Source of the DNA: a virus
Virus record (IMG/VR): IMGVR_UViG_3300032238_001058
Location: 1 to 64,000 of that record
DNA: 64,000 nt
Direction: 5' to 3' (one strand)
Shown: positions 261-35,906 of the stretch, in pieces
How the letters are laid out: each line of letters starts with the position of its first letter
How positions within the stretch are numbered: position 1 is the first letter of the stretch
The notes under the pieces: model-generated
Database searches by the model: none
What the model was told of the DNA's origin: nothing
The model's input: the letters and a program-made list of their open reading frames with translations, nothing else
Translations under genes and position numbers: made by a program

Positions 261-571
261 TCAGCCCCCTGCTGCGGCACCGGCTCAATGGTGGGGCGGC
301 CCCAGCGAGTAAGTACAGCGCGAGCAAAGTCAACTATGGGAAGGTCCTCTCCATCATTGTTCGTACGCCATTCATCCTCCATCCATGTGTGCAGTTCAAT
401 GATCTCCATTACTGTCGGCCTCTGCGGCTCGGGCTGGGCCAGGGCGGCATCAGCACGACGCAGCAGAGCCTCAAGATCGTCGAAACCGTAGCCGTTGTCC
501 TCAATGTACCAGGACTGGTAGCGCTCCAAGTTGTCAAGCAGTTCAGCGCACAGTGTTCGATAGTCAGTCAT
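257..571 (-). CDS. hypothetical cyanophage early protein (MTDYRTLCAEL...AALAQPEP...FARAVLxRWG type)
   Basis: starts at an ATGACTGA linker (571); start refined from ORF track. Confidence 0.75.
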   Translation of the reverse strand: MTDYRTLCAELLDNLERYQSWYIEDNGYGFDDLEALLRRADAALAQPEPQRPTVMEIIELHTWMEDEWRTNNDGEDLPIVDFARAVLTRWGRPTIEPVPQQGAE

Positions 572-628
572 TGGTTGAATTCTCAAAGATAAAAGTAGCC
601 TGAGTGTCAGTAATCGGTGGTGGTAGGT

Positions 629-814
629 TCACTCCTCGTATTGCGGGTAGCCAAAAAGCTTTTCAATGCGTCTAACCTCAATCTCAAATTGTTCAGCCAT
701 ATCAAAAGGTTGGCAATCATGAGTTTCAGCTAGTTCGTTTAGCTGGAGACACGTTACCTCACGGAGTTTTTCAAGGAGGAAACAACGGAGGGCGCGTTTA
801 TGTTCTGGCTTCAT
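629..814 (-). CDS. hypothetical protein
   Basis: 61-aa ORF co-oriented with neighbours. Confidence 0.65.
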   Translation of the reverse strand: MKPEHKRALRCFLLEKLREVTCLQLNELAETHDCQPFDMAEQFEIEVRRIEKLFGYPQYEE

Positions 815-845
815 TCTCAGCGCATAGTGTTCGGAAATCAGTCAT
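798..845 (-). pseudogene. 15-codon 5' stub (MTDFRTLCAE...) of the 257-571 gene family
   Basis: ATGACTGATTTCCGAACACTATGCGCTGAG matches the start of the 257-571 gene, then runs into the unrelated 629-814 ORF. Confidence 0.75.
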
Positions 846-1075
846 CGCTTTAGTCTCCAGTCGCCGTTCTCGTCCTGCTCACCCCAGCGGCTGACTAGGG
901 TCAGGTTCTCAATCCTACTGGGATCCATGAAGGTTGATGGCGCATTGGGGTTGCCGTTCATGCTCCAGTAGCACTTCCAGTAGCCGGGATAAGCATCACG
1001 ATCTTCGTCGGTGACGTACAACAGGCCCATGCCTTCATGGCGCCAGATGTCGCCAGGCTGAAGGCGGTCAGTCAT
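842..1075 (-). CDS. hypothetical protein (MTDRLQPGDIWRH...)
   Basis: ORF bounded by ATGACTGA linkers at both ends. Confidence 0.7.
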   Translation of the reverse strand: MTDRLQPGDIWRHEGMGLLYVTDEDRDAYPGYWKCYWSMNGNPNAPSTFMDPSRIENLTLVSRWGEQDENGDWRLKR

Positions 1076-1319
1076 TGTCATCCTCCAGCTCGGCGGCGAT
1101 GGCGAGGAGTTCGTCGCGCACCTTGCAACGATTACGGATGGCGGCAAGCGACAGCGATTCTTTGTAAATGTCACTTGGCTCCGGCACCACCTGATCTGCA
1201 GCAGCACGCAGGGCGGCAGCAAGACGTGCATGTAACACTGGAGTGGCATTTCCGTATCCACCACCAGCTTCTACTGCTGCATTAACTATTGCTTGTGTTT
1301 GAAACGATAGTTCAGTCAT
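1068..1319 (-). CDS. hypothetical cyanophage early protein (...LAAALRAAADQVVP...LLAIAAELE)
   Basis: ORF bounded by ATGACTGA linkers. Confidence 0.75.
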   Translation of the reverse strand: MTELSFQTQAIVNAAVEAGGGYGNATPVLHARLAAALRAAADQVVPEPSDIYKESLSLAAIRNRCKVRDELLAIAAELEDDND

Positions 1320-1321
1320 TG

Positions 1322-1624
1322 TCATTCTCCAAGTAATGCACAAGTTGCATCCATCAACTTAGGAAATACCTCGACAGGACAGATACGCATCTGCGCATGT
1401 TCAGTTGGTGTCTTGAGATGATCCCATTTAATCATCAACATCTTCATGGTTCGTTTACCTTTCAGTTGTTTGGTATGCACCTCAACCACAGTGCCATACC
1501 GTTGGCTACGGTATTGAGCAATGCGTTCCTTGACTTCATTGCGGATTGCAATCAAGCCATGGGTCTTGGGTCGTTCAGCAACACGATCACCAACCTGATA
1601 AGTGAATTGAGATTTGCTTGACAT
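1322..1624 (-). CDS. hypothetical protein, possible SH3-like fold
   Basis: YQVGDRVA...YGTVVEV...IKWD pattern. Confidence 0.65.
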   Translation of the reverse strand: MSSKSQFTYQVGDRVAERPKTHGLIAIRNEVKERIAQYRSQRYGTVVEVHTKQLKGKRTMKMLMIKWDHLKTPTEHAQMRICPVEVFPKLMDATCALLGE

Positions 1625-1962
1625 TAGATGTGAGTCCAAACTTTGCGGTTAACAATACGAGAGACATGCCCTCGGTTGATTCCATAGATGATTGAGATGG
1701 CAAAATTAGTTTGGCCTTCTTGTTTCAATTGGCGAATGTCCAAGATGTTTTGTTCAGTCAACACAGAGAATCCATTCTTGGATCCTTGTGTATCAGCAAG
1801 TTTACCACCACGTTTGGGACCACGGCGGTAATGTTCATAACGCTCAATAGTACGAAACTTAAAGCCACAGTCAAGACAACGGCAGTAACGTTTGCTAAAC
1901 GTTTCGCTGTGATCAGTGCAAGTAACACGAGTGTTCTTGCTGTTACACGATTGGCATTTCAT
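1624..1962 (-). CDS. NrdR-like N-terminal zinc ribbon plus C-terminal HTH DNA-binding protein
   Basis: MKCQSC...RYCRCLDCGFKFRTIE; C-terminal LTEQNILDIR...YGINRGHVSRIVNRKVW. Confidence 0.75.
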   Translation of the reverse strand: MKCQSCNSKNTRVTCTDHSETFSKRYCRCLDCGFKFRTIERYEHYRRGPKRGGKLADTQGSKNGFSVLTEQNILDIRQLKQEGQTNFAISIIYGINRGHVSRIVNRKVWTHI

Positions 1963-2269
1963 TGGTAGGTTCTGGTTGCAATTGGTTTAGTTTAAGTGCA
2001 TCAAGAATATCCACAGTAATCTGCGGACCAATCAACTTGAATGAATCAAAAATTAAATCATGTTTGCGATATAGTGGCGTGTAATAATCAAGCAGAATTT
2101 CTTCTGCTAAATCAAAGTTGTCATAAGTTCCTGTTAGTTGTTCAAGTACAGAACCTGGCATGTCATCAACAATGGCAGGCACAAGCTTTTTGCAAACTGT
2201 ATCCCATGTTGAATCAGGTATGCACTTAACAATTTCTTTAATAAGTTCTAGATCGATGTGTTGTGTCAT
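1943..2269 (-). CDS. hypothetical protein
   Basis: ORF; start refined to MTQHID. Confidence 0.65.
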   Translation of the reverse strand: MTQHIDLELIKEIVKCIPDSTWDTVCKKLVPAIVDDMPGSVLEQLTGTYDNFDLAEEILLDYYTPLYRKHDLIFDSFKLIGPQITVDILDALKLNQLQPEPTNEMPIV

Positions 2270-2273
2270 GGAG

Positions 2274-2298
2274 AAAAACCCCCGCTTGCGCAGGGGTC
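2274..2298 (-). terminator. hairpin with GCAA loop followed by U-tract
   Basis: minus strand ACCCCTGC-GCAA-GCGGGGGT-TTTT. Confidence 0.6.
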
Positions 2299-2317
2299 TA
2301 AACATTCCTCAATTACT

Positions 2318-2680
2318 TTACGCTGCTTGTGCCTGTGTGTCTACCACCTGATCCAACATTCCGTTTTGCTTAAGACGGTCAAGCATACCGCACATGAGCG
2401 TGGCAGAAGCATGGGTCTGCTCCATAAACGCACGTGCCCGGTCAGCTGACATGGTATGCACAGCACCACAAGGGCTTACATACCGCCAGCTACCATCAGG
2501 CTGTGGATCTCCCTGGAGCGCAAGCCGCTCAGAGTTATGCACATACTTGATCTCTAAGTTGTGGTAGTCATGAAGACCATCCTGTGCAGTCCAGGTAGCA
2601 CCAATGTTGTACCGCTGGTCCTCATCCGAGTATGCATGGAACTCAGGAATGATGTGCTTGAAGCAACCAAAAATGTTCAT
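2318..2680 (-). CDS. hypothetical protein
   Basis: ORF after CA-rich leader, downstream of tRNA. Confidence 0.7.
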   Translation of the reverse strand: MNIFGCFKHIIPEFHAYSDEDQRYNIGATWTAQDGLHDYHNLEIKYVHNSERLALQGDPQPDGSWRYVSPCGAVHTMSADRARAFMEQTHASATLMCGMLDRLKQNGMLDQVVDTQAQAA

Positions 2681-2703
2681 GATGTTTGAGTTGAGTGTGT
2701 GGT

Positions 2704-2779
2704 TGGTACCCGAGGTGAGATTTGAACTCACGCTGGAGCGATTTTAAGTCGCTTGCCTCTTCCGCTGGGCTACTCGGGC
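2704..2779 (-). tRNA. trnL: tRNA-Leu(TAA), 76 nt, encoded CCA, short variable loop
   Basis: GCCCGAG-TA-GCCCAGCGGAAGAGGC-A-AGCGA-CTTAAAA-TCGCT-CCAGC-GTGAG-TTCAAAT-CTCAC-CTCGGGT-A-CCA folds as a full cloverleaf. Confidence 0.92.
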
Positions 2780-2988
2780 TGACTTGGACTTACATCAATT
2801 GATGTTGAATGCCAAGTGTGATCTCGTGGCAGTACTTCCATTCCATACTGCCAGCTATCGTAGTCATCCTCATTACGAGGATCATTAGAATCAATCAGTA
2901 CATAATCAGGTGTGCCATGAGTATGTATGTACTCACCAAGATTGGCAAGTGCTTGTGCCAGGAGTTGGTCGTCGGTGTACTCAATCAT
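2770..2988 (-). CDS. acidic hypothetical protein
   Basis: ORF; last codons overlap tRNA 5' end. Confidence 0.6.
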   Translation of the reverse strand: MIEYTDDQLLAQALANLGEYIHTHGTPDYVLIDSNDPRNEDDYDSWQYGMEVLPRDHTWHSTSIDVSPSQPE

Positions 2989-3039
2989 TGGTGAATGCCA
3001 GCCCTAGTATCGAGGCTAAGGCTGGCAAGCCTGTGCGGG

Positions 3040-4785
3040 CTACACAGATGTTAGCGCAGCATCCTGCAGTTGCAACGCCTTGCCAAAGGCTTCTGTGTAT
3101 GCATCCTTCTGCTCCTGCGTCAACCGTTGGTTGGATGTGCTAACAATCTGACTGACACTCATCATGCCCATGTCAACAGTAAGTTGAACAGTGAACTTAG
3201 GTTGACCATCAACCATACAAAGCACAATAAAATGTTTCTTCTTGCGTATGCCATCAGCATAACTACTTGCATTACCAACGCAGTTACGTACAGCCTGGCC
3301 CCATGCTGACAGTTGATGTGTGTCATGAGGCTGGAAAAATGACCAACGCTCATTGTTTACCTCAACCTTAACAGGTGATGGGAACAAATCTTGAGGCAAC
3401 TTGACATTAGCATGTTCAATCTTCCATGCTTCTGCTTGTACATGATCATGAAACTCAGTCAACCTCCAACGCCTTGGCGGATCAATAGCAATATCTTTAT
3501 CAAGTACTGAAGACAGCATGGATATTGTGTCATACCAATCGCCAAAGTAAAAAACTACAACACCAATGCACCTATCAATAGAACGATTAAGTTCACTGAT
3601 TGACATACTATCAATCTTGTCATTATAGAATTTTTTAAGGATGTTAAAGAAAGTAGCTGGTTGCATATGTTTGCACAACCACTCTTGTGTTTTTCTATCT
3701 GAGTGGCGATCAAAACGTGTGCCAAGTAATTGTTCAAGATGTGTTTGGTAAAAATCAACAGGACAATCTGGCCATATATCATTTACATACGCAATTGTGT
3801 TAACTAATGTTTCAATGCGTTGCCAAGGTTGTTTTACCTTAGCCAATAAACTATTATCTGGATCATTGAACATTGCAATAGATTCATCGCACTGTGCTTG
3901 AATCCATTTACGAAAGAATGGCTTACCAATAATATGCATAATCTTGTGAGCTATACGATAGAATTCTTCGTAGGAATAATCAATAGCATTTTTGTATATA
4001 TCAGCTAATGTATAAAACAAATCTGCTGATGGCACCATATCAATTTGAGCTTGCACAGGATCACTAAAAGTTTGCCAATATTTTTGAAGCCCACTCATCT
4101 CAAGTATCTTGGCAAAGCTTGTTAAAGTAAACCGATCAAAGAATCCATGCGAGTCTTCCCATTGAGGTATGGTATCTTTGAGTGCAGATTCAAAAGCCCT
4201 GATTGTATTCCTAATGTATTCACCCTTGTGATATTGAATATAAAAAAGATTCCACCACTTGTATGTCTTACCATTTGCAATAGCTTCTTTAGTTAAGTTC
4301 TTACGAACAACACGAAATTCGCTACGTCCATACTTAATGTATTCAATGTCTTGACTATCTGTATTCATGTGTATTGCAGTTGGAATAGATTGTTTCATTG
4401 AATCAAGATTCTTATAGGCATATGCATATCCATAAACATAATCCTTCTCTTGTCCCCTGGGTGGTAGCCATGCTGCATACCAAATCTTTTCGTAGTGATA
4501 GATAATGGCATGTGTAATAGAGCCAGCATTAGGATTAGTAGGATCTACTAACCTTTTAAACTGTGCGTGACGATGTTTTACTTCCCTGGAATTAATTTCA
4601 GTTACTACCCGTTGAAGTGTATCAGGATCAACTACATCAGCAGGAATTAAATCAAAGACTGCACCAAGTGGAAACTTAGGTTTGGCTTTGGGTTCAGTAG
4701 ATTTTTGCTCACGTTGCAAGTGCTTAAGCTTGGGATCATAAGCAAGCAGTTGCGTTTGAAGATTGGTTGGGAGACGGAATTCCAT
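3040..4785 (-). CDS. PcfJ-like domain protein
   Basis: 581 aa; C-terminal FHD...QLSAWGQAVRNCVG...Y resembles the PcfJ-like motif. Confidence 0.7.
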   Translation of the reverse strand: MEFRLPTNLQTQLLAYDPKLKHLQREQKSTEPKAKPKFPLGAVFDLIPADVVDPDTLQRVVTEINSREVKHRHAQFKRLVDPTNPNAGSITHAIIYHYEKIWYAAWLPPRGQEKDYVYGYAYAYKNLDSMKQSIPTAIHMNTDSQDIEYIKYGRSEFRVVRKNLTKEAIANGKTYKWWNLFYIQYHKGEYIRNTIRAFESALKDTIPQWEDSHGFFDRFTLTSFAKILEMSGLQKYWQTFSDPVQAQIDMVPSADLFYTLADIYKNAIDYSYEEFYRIAHKIMHIIGKPFFRKWIQAQCDESIAMFNDPDNSLLAKVKQPWQRIETLVNTIAYVNDIWPDCPVDFYQTHLEQLLGTRFDRHSDRKTQEWLCKHMQPATFFNILKKFYNDKIDSMSISELNRSIDRCIGVVVFYFGDWYDTISMLSSVLDKDIAIDPPRRWRLTEFHDHVQAEAWKIEHANVKLPQDLFPSPVKVEVNNERWSFFQPHDTHQLSAWGQAVRNCVGNASSYADGIRKKKHFIVLCMVDGQPKFTVQLTVDMGMMSVSQIVSTSNQRLTQEQKDAYTEAFGKALQLQDAALTSV

Positions 4786-4814
4786 GTTGTGTTCAGAGTA
4801 AGTTCGTAGTTTGA

Positions 4815-4843
4815 TGGACAGTTTAACGTCATGTCCAGGACGT
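4815..4843 (-). ncRNA. putative H-type pseudoknot (copy 1; others at 10098-10124 and 13475-13499)
   Basis: ACGTC/GACGT stem 1, TGGACA/TGTCCA stem 2, TAAAC linker; stem 2 covaries among copies. Confidence 0.7.
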
Positions 4844-4849
4844 ATAGTG

Positions 4850-5098
4850 TCAGTCGTTATCTATTGGGAGTAGTTCCCAGTCAGGGTTGAGATCAGTAAG
4901 GTAGCTACAGAAGCCATCTTCGTCAAGAGGGATTTGTTCTCCCTCATCCATCTCAAAGCTAGCTCTGCATAATGCAGGAGCATACTCGGCAGGGTCAAGG
5001 TAAGTTGACTGATGGATGAGACGCATGTCATCAACCACTGCTGTAACTGTGACATCGTTACCATCAATGACTGTGTGTTCAATCGCTAACACGTTCAT
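4850..5098 (-). CDS. acidic hypothetical protein
   Basis: ORF. Confidence 0.7.
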   Translation of the reverse strand: MNVLAIEHTVIDGNDVTVTAVVDDMRLIHQSTYLDPAEYAPALCRASFEMDEGEQIPLDEDGFCSYLTDLNPDWELLPIDND

Positions 5099-5101
5099 GA
5101 G

Positions 5102-5299
5102 TTACACCTGTGTGAGTTGTTTGGCTTTAGCAAACTGACCTTCAGGTCCATACTTCTGGACAAGATCAGGGAATGCATCAAGCAAACGCTGCCGATTCTT
5201 TGGATCAGCAAAGCGTAGTGCCTGTGCAATTGAGGATACAAATGATCCACCATAACTGTCCATGCGGGCAATCATGGCGTGAAGTTCAGTCGGGTTCAT
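5102..5299 (-). CDS. conserved phage hypothetical protein
   Basis: M..YGGSFV..IA.A...AD..N..RL..AFPD common phage small-protein motif. Confidence 0.75.
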   Translation of the reverse strand: MNPTELHAMIARMDSYGGSFVSSIAQALRFADPKNRQRLLDAFPDLVQKYGPEGQFAKAKQLTQV

Positions 5300-5329
5300 G
5301 CTGTGAAGTTGAGTTGGATTTGATCAAAG

Positions 5330-5386
5330 CTGGGACTTACACTGCGTCTTTCTAAGCTCCAAGGCTTAACGACTACAGATGCCCAG
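5330..5386 (-). ncRNA. bulged-hairpin motif GG-CAK-[stem]-TGTAAG-W-CC (others at 13416-13449 minus and 34997-35023 plus)
   Basis: CTGGG-CAT-CTG...CAG-TGTAAG-T-CCCAG; fixed internal loop with variable stems. Confidence 0.6.
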
Positions 5387-5390
5387 TTTT

Positions 5391-5588
5391 TTAAAACAAC
5401 TTGATGTTACGTTTGCTTAAACCTGTACCAGGTAATGAGATAGATCCACGTACACCAGATTCTCTGGCGTTAAGTGTTACCTGGAATGGACCAAGTTTAA
5501 TTGACTTGGTAAATGATTTGATACCACGCTCGGTTATGTTAAACCCAGCGATGGTTCGATCAAAGTTGATAGGTGATCTGTCAGTCAT
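5391..5588 (-). CDS. DUF4236-like small basic protein
   Basis: KSIKLGPF.VTLN....GVRGSISLPGTGLS; starts at MTD linker. Confidence 0.6.
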   Translation of the reverse strand: MTDRSPINFDRTIAGFNITERGIKSFTKSIKLGPFQVTLNARESGVRGSISLPGTGLSKRNIKLF

Positions 5589-5916
5589 TAAGTTGCTCCA
5601 GTGCTTGGCGGATGGTGTCATAAGCATGGCCGTCAATCTTCTCATCGTCATTAATATTGCTAAGTTCACGCAACGCTTGCTGCTTCAAGCTTGGTTGTTT
5701 GGGGCGTCGAGCAACTCGCAGTAATCGAGCGGTATCATAATCAATGTTTGATCCTCCATTAAGCCAAACACAACAAGCCTCTAGCTCTTGGTCAGCACCC
5801 CATTTAGCAGCCTCCAAAGCAATCCACTGATCACGAAACCAACCTGAAGCTGGAGCTTTACTGCGAAACTGTTGCAATACTTCTGGCATTAAAACAATCG
5901 GATGGTGGTCAGTCAT
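5581..5916 (-). CDS. tandem-array paralog F
   Basis: AAKWGADQELEACC...RRPKQPSLKQQAL...IRQALEQLND. Confidence 0.8.
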   Translation of the reverse strand: MTDHHPIVLMPEVLQQFRSKAPASGWFRDQWIALEAAKWGADQELEACCVWLNGGSNIDYDTARLLRVARRPKQPSLKQQALRELSNINDDEKIDGHAYDTIRQALEQLND

Positions 5917-6374
5917 TCGGGCAGGGCCTCCAGTGCGCGGCGGATGATGTCGGCTTGGGTGGCAAAAAACGTCACGTAGTCAGTGCTCAGAGGTCTGCTA
6001 ACTCCTTGTTCAATCCACTGCTGCACCAGCTCCGGCGGTGGGGTGATTGGATGTTGGTCAGTCATTAAGTTGCTCCAGTGCTTGTCGGATGGTGATGAAG
6101 TCTTGATGCGGTCTAGTGCTTCCAACGCCTGTTCCCTCAAACTCGGTGGCTTGGGACGGCGTGCGGAGCGCAGATAAGAACTATCAAAGTGTAAACATGC
6201 ATCGTCCAGCCACTCACAGCAAGCATCCAGCTCGCAATCGGCACCCCATTGGGCGGCTCGGGTGGCGATATGTTCGTCGCTCAATCCAACTCGAACTGGT
6301 GTTCCTTCATGCCAGATTTCGGCCACCCACTGCTGCACCAGCTCCGGCGGTGGGGTAAGTTTGGGGTCAGTCAT
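5913..6374 (-). CDS. tandem-array paralogs D+E, fused by a frameshifting deletion; E internally deleted
   Basis: D reads through the 6058 junction in the alternative frame (SDKHWSNL-MTD); E lacks the AAQWGADQ to PSLKEQAL blocks. Confidence 0.7.
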   Translation of the reverse strand: MTDPKLTPPPELVQQWVAEIWHEGTPVRVGLSDEHIATRAAQWGADCELDACCEWLDDACLHFDSSYLRSARRPKPPSLREQALEALDRIKTSSPSDKHWSNLMTDQHPITPPPELVQQWIEQGVSRPLSTDYVTFFATQADIIRRALEALPE

Positions 6375-6711
6375 TAAGTTGCTCCAGTGCTTGGCGGATG
6401 ATGTGTTTGTCATCTGCAGTAGGAAACTGATCCATACGGTCTAGTGCCTCAAACGCCTGCTCCTTCAAGCTTGGCGACTTGGGGCGGCGGGCATTGCGAA
6501 TATTAACAATAACCTCACCAGACCCTATCCCATACCAATCGTCAATCCACTCACAACACGCCTCCAACTCCTGGTCCGACCCCCATTGTGCCGCATAGTT
6601 AGCCAACCGCAGTGTCCAACTTTTTTCGCTGGATTTGTTTTCATTTGCAACTGCCGTATCAAACCATTGCTGCACCAGTTCCACTGGTGGAGTGAATTTA
6701 GGGTCAGTCAT
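6367..6711 (-). CDS. tandem-array paralog C
   Basis: MTDPKFTPPVELVQQW...AAQWGSDQELEACCEW...IIRQALEQLND. Confidence 0.8.
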   Translation of the reverse strand: MTDPKFTPPVELVQQWFDTAVANENKSSEKSWTLRLANYAAQWGSDQELEACCEWIDDWYGIGSGEVIVNIRNARRPKSPSLKEQAFEALDRMDQFPTADDKHIIRQALEQLND

Positions 6712-7048
6712 TAAGTTGCTCCAGTGCTTGTCGGATGATGTCAGTGATCTCAGGGATGTAGTGGCCGTCGCGCGCAATCGTCCCCAGCATCTGCAGCGCA
6801 ATACTGTTCAGCGTTTGAGGTTTGGGGCGGCGTGCGGCGCGGAGTGCCGGAATGGCTTTGCCGTCATCGCCCCAGTAGTCCATGCGCTTCATCCAGTCGA
6901 TGCACGCCTCCAGCTCCTGGTCGGCGCCCCATTGGGCGGCTTGAGTGGCGAGGTTCCTCCAGAACTGATCGTAAGTTTCGTGCTTGTTGCTACGAACACA
7001 CCACTCACGCACCAGTTCCACTGGTGGAGTGAGTTTAGGGTCAGTCAT
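6704..7048 (-). CDS. tandem-array paralog B
   Basis: MTDPKLTPPVELVREW...AAQWGADQELEAC...IIRQALEQLND. Confidence 0.8.
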   Translation of the reverse strand: MTDPKLTPPVELVREWCVRSNKHETYDQFWRNLATQAAQWGADQELEACIDWMKRMDYWGDDGKAIPALRAARRPKPQTLNSIALQMLGTIARDGHYIPEITDIIRQALEQLND

Positions 7049-7400
7049 TAAGTTGCTCCAGTGCTTGTCGGATAATACGTTGGTCATCGGCGGTAGGAAA
7101 CTGATCCATGCGGTTTAGTGCTTCCAGCGCCTGCTCCTTCAAGCTCGGCGGCTTGGGGCGGCGGACGGCGCGGAGTGACTCGCTGTAAGACCAATGCTCA
7201 GTGTCATAGCCTTTAGCCCACTCAAGACACGCCTCCAGCTCCTGCTCGGCGCCCCATTGGGCGGCCTCAATTAATCTTTGTGCATAGGCTTCATCTGGCA
7301 CGGATCGTGCTGCGTGACAGCCAAGACCGAGCCCATGTGGCGCATCTATCCACTGCTTTACCAGCTCAGGCGGCGGTGTGATGGGATGTTGGTCAGTCAT
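7041..7400 (-). CDS. tandem-array paralog A
   Basis: MTDQHPITPPPELVKQW...AAQWGAEQELEAC...IIRQALEQLND. Confidence 0.8.
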   Translation of the reverse strand: MTDQHPITPPPELVKQWIDAPHGLGLGCHAARSVPDEAYAQRLIEAAQWGAEQELEACLEWAKGYDTEHWSYSESLRAVRRPKPPSLKEQALEALNRMDQFPTADDQRIIRQALEQLND

Positions 7401-7719
7401 CGTTCAAATCTACAGGGCGATAGGGGGGCATCAACTGTCCATTGGCATCAATAAAACCAAATTCCTGCAGGAACTGCCGGGCAGCAGCACAGTCACCATC
7501 TAAAGCACGTTGCAACAATGTTGGAGCAGCAAGTTCATCGGCTAAACTTTCAAGTGTTGCTACTGGAACGCCAACTAAACTTGCGTCATCGCAATCGCAG
7601 TACTCATCAAAGACACAAGCAAGATGCCTAAGCACATTGGCAATGCCTTCTCGAATACTTTCGCCTTCTTTAAACTCATCAATCAAACGCTGAGAACGGG
7701 ATGTGAGATGGTCAGTCAT
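7393..7719 (-). CDS. hypothetical protein
   Basis: bounded by ATGACTGA linkers. Confidence 0.7.
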   Translation of the reverse strand: MTDHLTSRSQRLIDEFKEGESIREGIANVLRHLACVFDEYCDCDDASLVGVPVATLESLADELAAPTLLQRALDGDCAAARQFLQEFGFIDANGQLMPPYRPVDLNDD

Positions 7720-7942
7720 TGTCTTCCTCCATTTCTTGAGTAATCTTTGAGTGCCAGTACTGCCAACGTACAAGCGCTGGCACAGAAGATGGTTGAATGC
7801 CCATGTTTTCTAAAAGCAATTCAAACCATTGGGCCATTGCTTCAATTGTGGCATCAACTTTTGGATGACCCGGTGGATAATCCAAAGTTTCTCCAAGCAT
7901 GCATTGGAGCTTTGTGTAATTATTTTCATCATTAGTCATCAT
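7712..7942 (-). CDS. hypothetical protein
   Basis: ends ...EEDND* at a linker. Confidence 0.65.
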   Translation of the reverse strand: MMTNDENNYTKLQCMLGETLDYPPGHPKVDATIEAMAQWFELLLENMGIQPSSVPALVRWQYWHSKITQEMEEDND

Positions 7943-8234
7943 AGGAATCTGCATGGTGAAGTACAAACTTCAAATCAAAATACTCAGGATCATCTTTGTC
8001 TTTAGGATGGTATGTAGCTACAAATCCACCACTACTAACTTCCTTCTCAGCAATGCAGTCACGCAGTAAGTTACGTGCCATTGCTTTAAGTCTGGGCAGT
8101 GTTGGAACTGAACGTCCAATACTATCTGTTGTTGCCCATTGCCAGTCAAGTGCTGACATAGCAATGTGTACTTTTTCAAAATTGAATTTATCAATGACTT
8201 CATTAATCATTGATTCATGTACTTTATTAATCAT
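7932..8234 (-). CDS. conserved phage hypothetical protein
   Basis: FNFEKVH..M..LDW.W...VPT...LK..AR.LL motif. Confidence 0.75.
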   Translation of the reverse strand: MINKVHESMINEVIDKFNFEKVHIAMSALDWQWATTDSIGRSVPTLPRLKAMARNLLRDCIAEKEVSSGGFVATYHPKDKDDPEYFDLKFVLHHADSYDD

Positions 8235-8434
8235 TTGAGGTTGTCAGGCAGGAGTGCTTGGGCATCATCATCATCCATGTTGGTCATAATAAATTTCTGT
8301 CCATCGGGGGAGATAAATCCCCCGATGAAACCAACACCATGTTTGTCAGCTGATTCTTTCATCTTGGCTACAAGTTGCATAGCTTCAAGACGACGAGCGT
8401 CAATTGAATCTGGGATGCGTAGGTCGTCAGACAT
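8231..8434 (-). CDS. hypothetical protein
   Basis: ORF after CA-rich leader. Confidence 0.7.
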   Translation of the reverse strand: MSDDLRIPDSIDARRLEAMQLVAKMKESADKHGVGFIGGFISPDGQKFIMTNMDDDDAQALLPDNLK

Positions 8435-35204: not shown

Positions 35205-35906
35205 ATGACTGAACGCGAACTATTACAAAGTTACGTATCAAAACCAGCCACTCAAAATGCATTGCGTGTTATTCGCTTTGCAGAAGGTACTGAACGTGGC
35301 GGGCCTGATTCTTATCGCGTTATGCTTGGCGGCGGTCTCGCTCCAGATTTAAAACAACATCCGGGCAAAGTTATCAAAAGCGGTCGTTACGCAAGTGACG
35401 CTGCAGGTGCTTATCAGTTTTTATCAACAACTTGGGACGCACAAGCAAAAGCTTTGGGGCTATCTGATTTCAGTGCTCCGAATCAAGATCTTGCCGCAAC
35501 TCGACTTCTACGAAATCGGTTAATGCCGATTGGGGGGTTATCCACTTTAGAAAAAGAAGGATTCAGTCCTCGCGTATCTGCAGCATTGGCACCTGAGTGG
35601 GCATCTTTACCTACTGAAAGCGGCAAAAGCTATTACGGACAACCTGTCAAAAATCTTTCTGAATTACAGAAAGTTTATGGGCAAGTTGCCACACCTTCTT
35701 CCACTGCGCAACAACAATCTGGTAGTGGGCAGGACACATCTTCTGGTAGTTTTCTTCAAGGGTTTTTGTCGGCAATGACTGATAATCAACCTAAGGAACT
35801 TTCTGTTACAGATTTGGTAAAGCAAGAACTAATGGCAAAACTTCTGTCGCCTCCTTCAGAAATGAACCCACTTGATTTTTTAGCTAATATGAGACCTTAT
35901 GGTTAA
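35205..35906 (+). CDS. lambda-R-like (GH104) muramidase/lytic transglycosylase
   Basis: IRFAEGT, SDAAGAYQFLSTTW, QD, LAPEWASLP. Confidence 0.85.
   Translation: MTERELLQSYVSKPATQNALRVIRFAEGTERGGPDSYRVMLGGGLAPDLKQHPGKVIKSGRYASDAAGAYQFLSTTWDAQAKALGLSDFSAPNQDLAATRLLRNRLMPIGGLSTLEKEGFSPRVSAALAPEWASLPTESGKSYYGQPVKNLSELQKVYGQVATPSSTAQQQSGSGQDTSSGSFLQGFLSAMTDNQPKELSVTDLVKQELMAKLLSPPSEMNPLDFLANMRPYG

Follow-up and report, generated by a model that had tools for sequence, protein, structure and literature searches.

The early region of a virus genome held as IMG/VR record IMGVR_UViG_3300032238_001058 carries a recurring 8-mer, ATGACTGA, at the borders of its small genes, which we refer to as the linker. 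Throughout, the window denotes the whole stretch that was analysed, bases 1–64,000 of the 82,624-nucleotide (nt) record. All twelve minus-strand copies listed in a preliminary description of this DNA were recovered (564, 838, 1068, 1312, 5581, 5909, 6058, 6367, 6704, 7041, 7393 and 7712), as was the variant ATGACTAA at 7932. Counting both strands, the window holds 16 copies against 2.2 expected, a number reached in 0 of 100 shuffles. In the genome as a whole four copies lie outside the 564–7719 region (about 75 kb), none of them in the last 18.6 kb; the one at 35205 is a gene start, and the other three are internal or antisense.

Reading along the minus strand, the first gene of interest is a conserved backbone gene of 67 amino acids (gene X, 8231–8434, ending ..PDNLK*, where the asterisk marks the stop), which aligns with related loci in our comparison set (L066:44–201, L054 and L020) and serves as the left anchor for an insertion that is specific to this genome and about 2.65 kb long. 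The inserted block opens with a 100-amino-acid gene (7932–8234) that shares an ATGA overlap with gene X and ends ..SYDD* in an 8-nt overlap with ATGACTAA at 7932–7939. At this variant starts a 75-amino-acid gene (7712–7939, MTNDENNY.. to ..EMEEDND*), whose C terminus is homologous to L082:~10546 and which terminates at the second TGA of the 7712–7719 linker. The next gene, of 108 amino acids (7393–7719, MTDHLTSRSQRLIDEF.. to ..VDLNDD*), has a linker at each end (7712–7719 and 7393–7400) and a homolog with the same neighbours at L048:9138–9464.

There follows, between 5581 and 7400, a tandem array of six copies of a single family, phrog_32006, hereafter family B. Four copies are separate genes: paralog 1 (7041–7400, 119 amino acids), paralog 2 (6704–7048, 114), paralog 3 (6367–6711, 114) and paralog 6 (5581–5916, 111), the last being the most divergent and ending ..ALEQLND* at the linker 5581–5588. 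Copies 4 and 5 are degenerate and form a single open reading frame (ORF) of 153 amino acids (5913–6374), whose ..ALEALPE* end uses the first TGA of the 5909 linker; copy 5 has an internal deletion that leaves 50 amino acids, without the central conserved motifs, and copy 4 reads through the linker at 6058–6065 into it because a frame change precedes its C-terminal block. Paralogs 1, 3 and 6 match phrog_32006 over its full length (about 114 of 116 profile positions; E = 7e-25, 4e-23 and 1e-21, respectively), and a typical copy reads MTD(P/Q/H)..PP.ELV.QW ... AAQWGADQELEAC ... RRPKPPSLK ... IIRQALEQLND*. The right anchor of the insertion is a DUF4236-like backbone gene of 65 amino acids (5391–5588). 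Apart from the weak match of this gene to DUF4236, profile searches against Pfam, PHROGs and the PDB returned no function for family B or the other small genes. At the internal motifs of family B (ELEAC, RRPK and SLK), synonymous codons are almost fixed across loci L012–L091 (GCG for Ala in 34 of 36 cases, TTG for Leu in 37 of 41), a conservation stronger than expected from protein constraint alone.

Among isolates, homologs of family B occur in the Synechococcus phages S-CBS2, S-H1 and S-RIP1. The gene begins with ATGACTGA in S-H1 and S-RIP1 and with ATGACACA in S-CBS2 (gp065), and in the GenBank annotation of S-CBS2 the genes gp065 to gp068 are joined by 8-nt overlaps, two of which are ATGACTGA. 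The phage studied here encodes a large terminase, a virion structural protein, a tail fibre, a primase, a family A DNA polymerase, SSB and ThyX; a megablast search of the region against isolated phages gave no match. Because, among isolates, family B homologs occur only in Synechococcus phages, 'cyanophage' would seem a reasonable label for it.

A second group of linkers lies further along the strand. A backbone gene of 105 amino acids (1322–1639, ..IGDRVAERPK.. to ..PGE*) stops 2 nt before the linker at 1312–1319, at which starts an 83-amino-acid homolog of S-CBS2 gp066 (1068–1319, MTELS.. to ..LAIAAELEDDND*), flanked by direct repeats of about 22 nt that include both of its linkers and are identical at 20 of 22 positions. 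The following gene, of 77 amino acids (842–1075, MTDRLQPGD.. to ..WRLKR*), runs from the linker at 1068 to the first TGA of the linker at 838, and the latter begins a 15-codon remnant (798–845, MTDFRTLCAENEART*), which is a truncated copy of the opening ~29 nt of the last gene in the series. That gene (257–571, 104 amino acids, MTDYRTLCAELLDNLE..) starts at the linker 564–571, and there is no credible upstream gene that ends at, or overlaps, this linker. Its homologs lie at L048:10326 and L048:10889, the second of these belonging to a chimera (L048:10889–11260) in which the N terminus of the MTDFR.LCAEL family, to which the window gene belongs, is followed by the family B C-terminal block (..IRRALEQLND).

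Two of these starts are doubled: at 1062–1075 and 1306–1319 the window reads ATGACAATGACTGA (MTMT..), with an upstream ATGAC in frame with the ATG of the linker. At the site matching 1312, relatives use the upstream ATGAC as the overlapping start of the resident gene, and the doubling looks like the scar of a joint between two ATGAC starts. The 13 nt preceding the linkers at 1312 and 1068 were also considered as a relic of a shared ..NDND* end, a candidate that was rejected; at 1312 they are the natural ..PGE* end of the conserved backbone gene.

The anatomy of the individual sites largely agrees with what had been described. The statement that every copy sits at a gene start stands for ten of the twelve, which begin clear ORFs of 65–153 codons; it does not stand for the copy at 838, which begins the 15-codon remnant, or for that at 6058, where the 8-mer lies in frame within the fused ORF and the upstream frame is open for 125 codons. 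The linker does usually supply the stop of the upstream gene. At seven of the twelve sites (7712, 7393, 7041, 6704, 6367, 5581 and 1068) this stop is the second TGA, giving an 8-nt overlap in which the upstream protein ends ND* or DD*, and the second TGA of the variant at 7932 is likewise an upstream stop with an 8-nt overlap. At two further sites (5909 and 838) it is the first TGA, giving the 4-nt overlap ATGA; at 1312, with the upstream stop lying 2 nt before the ATG, neither TGA is used.

Six copies (7393, 7041, 6704, 6367, 6058 and 5909) begin the tandem family B paralogs, those at 564 and 838 begin a second paralog pair, and that at 5581 is the end of the last family B paralog; the 8-mer also sits inside longer repeats of the window, of 30–160 nt. 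Since about half of the twelve copies begin tandem paralogs or members of a pair, they are not independent events. The rarity that had been claimed, against about 0.1 copy expected by chance, thus holds in a reduced form, for about six independent junction lineages, which is still far above expectation.

To place these sites in a wider context we used 80 IMG/VR loci with a family B gene, taken from at least 543 confirmed stretches. On the gene strand of these loci there are 231 copies of ATGACTGA and on the opposite strand 15, the expectation being about 18 for either. The lengths of gene overlaps peak at 4 nt (629 cases), 8 nt (274) and 1 nt (270), against 25–62 for neighbouring lengths, and ATGACTGA makes up about half of the 8-nt overlaps, though 48 different 8-mers are possible there; the runner-up, ATGAGTGA, also has a TGA in both frames. 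The overlapping stop and start found at the window sites recurs in 244 copies of the relatives: 235 of them begin an ORF of at least 35 codons, and the upstream stop is the second TGA in about 155 and the first in about 45. The proteins begun by the 8-mer fall into 66 clusters, of which family B has 116 members and 44 are singletons. The claim that the linker joins paralogs and unrelated genes alike is thus borne out in the window and in its relatives, and the dense arrays of L040, L016, L048 and L013 are assembled, in different orders, from the pool of small families that also supplies the window.

Whether a given gene carries the linker depends on what precedes it. Homologs of genes that start with the linker have it in 40% of their other occurrences, with 63% behind family B versus 35% otherwise (odds ratio 3.1, p = 0.01). 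The linker therefore depends on the upstream neighbour, and the 8-mer is a property of the junction, or of the gene pair, and not of one protein family. Away from family B it accounts for 6–8% of strict overlapping junctions at any gene size, and for 13% within 1 kb of family B. In all classes, the strict rule asks that the downstream frame be closed just upstream, that there be a real upstream ORF and that no third frame be open across the site. Shine–Dalgarno-like motifs precede 31–41% of the linkers not associated with family B.

A codon-aware comparison, as had been suggested, shows that the 8-mer is favoured as nucleotides beyond what coding for M-T-(D/E) requires. At starts with these residues the threonine codon is ACT in 167 cases and ACC, ACG or ACA in 29 (85% ACT), against 34% ACT for internal threonines before GA; threonine at codon 2 without a following GA shows no preference (28% ACT). 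ACT is kept where the first TGA alone is used (48 of 59) and where no long ORF overlaps (36 of 60), and when family B is left out and clusters are counted instead of genes, the corresponding shares are 68% (p = 5e-4) and 55% (p = 0.012). ACT is still found in 10 of 12 clusters when the count is limited to sites whose +2 frame closes within 12 codons, which leaves the second TGA no role as a stop. The off-frame stop is thus kept above synonymous expectation at sites where it is nonfunctional, with ACT at 68–100% versus 34% in strict classes that are small. Because ACT is favoured even where the second TGA is unused, the 8-mer is kept as nucleotides and as a unit, on strict numbers that are small.

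On the basis of these results, we consider it probable that ATGACTGA is a preferred, frame-robust stop/start coupling junction of small early cyanophage genes, multiplied locally by gene duplication. The word has a signal in all three frames, with ATG in frame 0, a TGA in frame +1 that gives the ATGA overlap, and a TGA in frame +2 that gives the 8-nt overlap with an upstream (N/D)D* end. An upstream gene in either non-zero frame accordingly ends within 8 nt of the next start codon, and one in frame 0 is fused to its neighbour, as at 6058. The terminating ribosome would then re-initiate at the ATG, a translational coupling that we infer from the arrangement of the codons. Such robustness to a change of frame or a replacement of the neighbour may explain both the retention of T in an unused stop and the frequency of the word in a gene pool that changes fast, and gene shuffling would take place at junctions generally and not specifically at the 8-mer. 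The abundance in the window would have two main sources: phrog_32006, which begins and ends with the junction, has been tandemly duplicated six times, and the neighbouring genes are drawn from a pool of small families in which other cyanophages show this junction too.

In this form, ATGACTGA is a sharpened version of the ordinary ATGA gene overlap and not an integron-like recombination site. Prokaryotic gene overlaps are dominated by lengths of 4 nt (about 45%) and 1 nt (about 15%) (PMC3887535), and overlapping pairs are translationally coupled by termination–reinitiation (Huber et al. 2019, PMC6728339). The present junctions resemble such ATGA and TGATG pairs in that co-directional genes share the letters of stop and start, the 8-mer itself containing ATGA, and in that Shine–Dalgarno-like motifs stand before about a third of the linkers, matching cyanobacteria, in which these motifs are rare for de novo initiation yet present in about 40% of overlapping pairs (PMC6728339). 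They differ in that a single 8-mer carries stops in both other frames and is kept where the second stop is unused, and in that the 8-nt peak is as high as the 1-nt peak, whereas surveys (PMC3887535) single out no such word. A further parallel is offered by hidden stops and the ambush hypothesis (PMC3700767, PMC5909447), in which, as here, an off-frame stop exceeds codon-usage expectation; the off-frame stops of the linker coincide with the start codon, however, and act for the upstream gene, not for frameshifted ribosomes inside a gene, and the ambush hypothesis is itself disputed. We found no paper that describes the 8-mer, a text search having returned primers only. The stop/start overlap is thus known and its specific 8-mer form is new, and what we describe is not a new kind of mobile-element system.

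A junction of this kind offers a testable rule for how densely packed phage mini-genes stay terminated and co-translated while their order changes, and about half of the unusual peak of 8-nt overlaps seen across many cyanophage contigs can be put down to a single 8-letter word. For annotation, it allows the starts of tiny ORFs to be placed confidently and makes fused or decayed copies recognizable; for design, polycistronic constructs in cyanobacteria could use it as a ready-made joint that does not depend on frame.

Several points weigh against the coupling-junction reading, however. In its own genome the linker is nearly confined to this region, with one gene start elsewhere (35205), a confinement that a pure habit of translation would not predict. 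The retention of T at position 6 where its TGA is unused is a matter of 10 of 12 clusters, the strict junction and codon classes being small in general, and the kept T could have been left over from 8-nt junctions of the past, with no selection acting on it now. Furthermore, all comparison loci were picked through family B and so represent a single gene-sharing phage network and not phages at large, and the gene calls came from crude ORF rules with no trained gene finder.

Insertions in relatives show how the start of a resident gene can change. Six loci (L053, L066, L054, L020, L060 and L035) are syntenic with the window phage at about 70–80% nucleotide identity, and in all six the family B array is missing from this position. 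Gene X (..PDQLK*) of L066 and L020 runs straight into the DUF4236 gene (MTKKS.ISFDRT) through ATGA or GTGA; in the window the two lie 2.65 kb apart (8234 down to 5589), the interval being taken up by the three small genes plus the family B array, and the DUF4236-like gene starts with ATGACTGAC (MTDRSPINFDRT) in place of the ATGACCAAG/GTGACTAAG of relatives without the insertion. A second insertion appears on comparing L053 with L020, with a family B gene inserted in L020 between a conserved ..PGE* gene and a small membrane-protein gene, the start of which changes from ATGACGCCA to ATGACTGAA. To judge from these two joints, a resident downstream gene can take over the 8-mer upon insertion. That the 8-mer can arrive with the upstream gene fits joints formed by ATGA(C) microhomology at gene starts.

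Such joints lend themselves to two further readings. According to the first, ATGACTGA would be a selected 'docking' start that makes accessory mini-genes portable within a shared cyanophage pool, ATGAC microhomology being the usual joint. We put this forward tentatively, as something possible that we do not expect. Were it true, a gene with the 8-mer would, by stopping its neighbour in either of the other frames, survive insertion behind almost any gene and stay coupled to it, mini-genes would circulate among cyanophages with this junction as a shared grammar, and selection would act on the junction as a trait of gene mobility and not only of expression.

According to the second, the 8-mer, or the end of family B together with it, would be a boundary sequence, a preferred (micro)homology for exchange, duplication or insertion of small genes, and the array would have arisen through recombination at it. 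We regard this as unlikely. It draws on the same two insertion joints at gene starts, at which residents gain ATGACTGA (8234/5588 in this genome against L066/L020, and L020 against L053), on the dependence of the linker upon its upstream neighbour, on the T retained where it is unused, on the 22-nt direct repeats flanking the gene at 1319–1068, and on the existence of chimeras and remnants (L048:10889, 845–798, and the deleted and fused family B copies). In addition, the 28–39 nt around the linker are 95–100% identical among the family B paralogs of the window, which elsewhere are 68–77% identical, a pattern that could support unequal crossing-over within the array.

A preferred site of exchange should show in the breakpoints between related genomes, and the expectation that gains and losses of genes map to the linker did not hold up. 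Under the strict definition, breakpoints fall at 11 of 22 linker junctions (50%), compared with 51% of other 4-nt overlaps and 46% of 1-nt overlaps, a comparison of low power. A cruder count had given an excess at the linker (86% versus 44%, and 57% versus 30% with family B masked, odds ratio 3.0), which outlasted controls for gene size and neighbourhood and was rejected when it disappeared under an equal strict definition; it had arisen because the loci were selected by family B and because the control classes contained false junctions inside genes. As rates are similar across junction classes, breakpoints map to gene junctions in general. Moreover, the linker is about equally common away from the variable array, with 6–8% of overlapping junctions, which comes close to what the preliminary description had named as refuting its proposal.

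The sequence around the linker speaks against a boundary sequence as well. Outside family B the flanks are not conserved and are nearly uninformative apart from a weak preference at positions −1 and +9, the conserved part being 8–9 nt, and 8 nt are probably too short for homologous recombination; nearly the same microhomology is available at any ATGA junction. Across phages, synonymous sites at the 3′ end of family B are less conserved than those at its internal motifs. A longer conserved boundary sequence was considered and none was found outside family B, and short-sided 'joints' seen in assembled contigs were rejected as repeats or other organisms. To explain phage mosaicism, short boundary sequences were proposed long ago, an idea that is rarely verifiable (PMC3029335, with its refs 21 and 22 for the concept). 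The linker resembles the lambdoid sequences, as outlined there, in being a short word that recurs at gene borders of a mosaic, fast-changing region, and it differs from them in its 8–9 nt length, its position inside the coding sequence of both genes and its lack of breakpoint enrichment.

Much less probable is that the 8-mer is simply the inherited MTD/MTE N terminus of a few duplicated families, without selection on its nucleotides. Descent does contribute, in that 8 of the 12 window copies begin members of two paralog groups, about half of those in the 80 loci belong to family B, and neighbouring families recur with the same starts elsewhere. Nevertheless, 65 further clusters begin with the word, ACT is much commoner than its synonymous share would give, the presence of the 8-mer varies among homologs of one gene with their upstream neighbour, and the 8-mer forms about half of all 8-nt overlaps. 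The codon tests and the dependence on the neighbour largely refute descent as the whole explanation.

Integron cassettes (attC with IntI) and the PeSL cassettes of T4-type phages form arrays of small promoterless accessory genes in one orientation, and this much they share with the region studied here. The preliminary description was right in recognizing a real, recurrent gene junction, but its proposal of an integron-like plug-in array, in which the 8-mer would be the core site of a dedicated recombinase, can for practical purposes be set aside: it has in its favour that a fixed short word is regularly spaced along the gene borders, and against it stand the unconserved flanks, the unenriched breakpoints, the location of the motif within two coding frames, the lack of any attC-like inverted repeat, promoter, stem-loop or intergenic space (with genes overlapping by 4–8 nt there is no room for an attC-type repeat), and the lack of any integrase or site-specific recombinase in Pfam and PHROGs scans, which took in the genes of the region together with most ORFs of at least ~130 amino acids in the replication and early blocks, though not every small ORF. 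The general functions that these scans did find are an exonuclease, an endonuclease, SSB, Sipho_Gp157, PolA and a primase. In the source-sample data one run holds the phage, as assembled contigs, and no circular or excised forms were seen among these, a negative limited to assembled sequence. As a caution for similar cases, a regular word at gene borders is by itself no evidence of a cassette recombination system.

The genes described belong to a minus-strand block that runs from about 14.5 kb down to base 44 and resumes at the record's right end, where it leads into the replication genes. Bases 44–84 equal the last 41 bases of the record (L092:18584–18624), a circular or permuted overlap, so the genome closes on itself. 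Bases 1–43, at the very end of the record, are an exact copy of 1082–1124 joined to base 44, and the copy is joined in frame to a gene start (MKTRY followed by KVRDELLAIAAELE). Among Logan contigs, one spans exactly 44–1124 and another connects 284 back to 44 via the right end of the record. The copy is probably an assembly-graph artefact at a repeat, which is the likelier origin because a contig of exactly 44–1124 is a graph node bounded by repeats; on these grounds, it was rejected as an excised or duplicated cassette, and a tandem-duplication variant stays conceivable.

Other features of the early block include a tRNA-Leu(TAA) gene on the minus strand (2704–2779), set amid small ORFs, and a 581-amino-acid early protein (3040–4785) with a C-terminal PcfJ-like domain (Pfam, E = 3e-07) as its only assignment. 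The G+C content is 50–52% in the linker-rich small-gene segments (1–2000 and 6001–8000), compared with about 43–45% in most of the genome, which is consistent with an origin of the small genes in a different pool.

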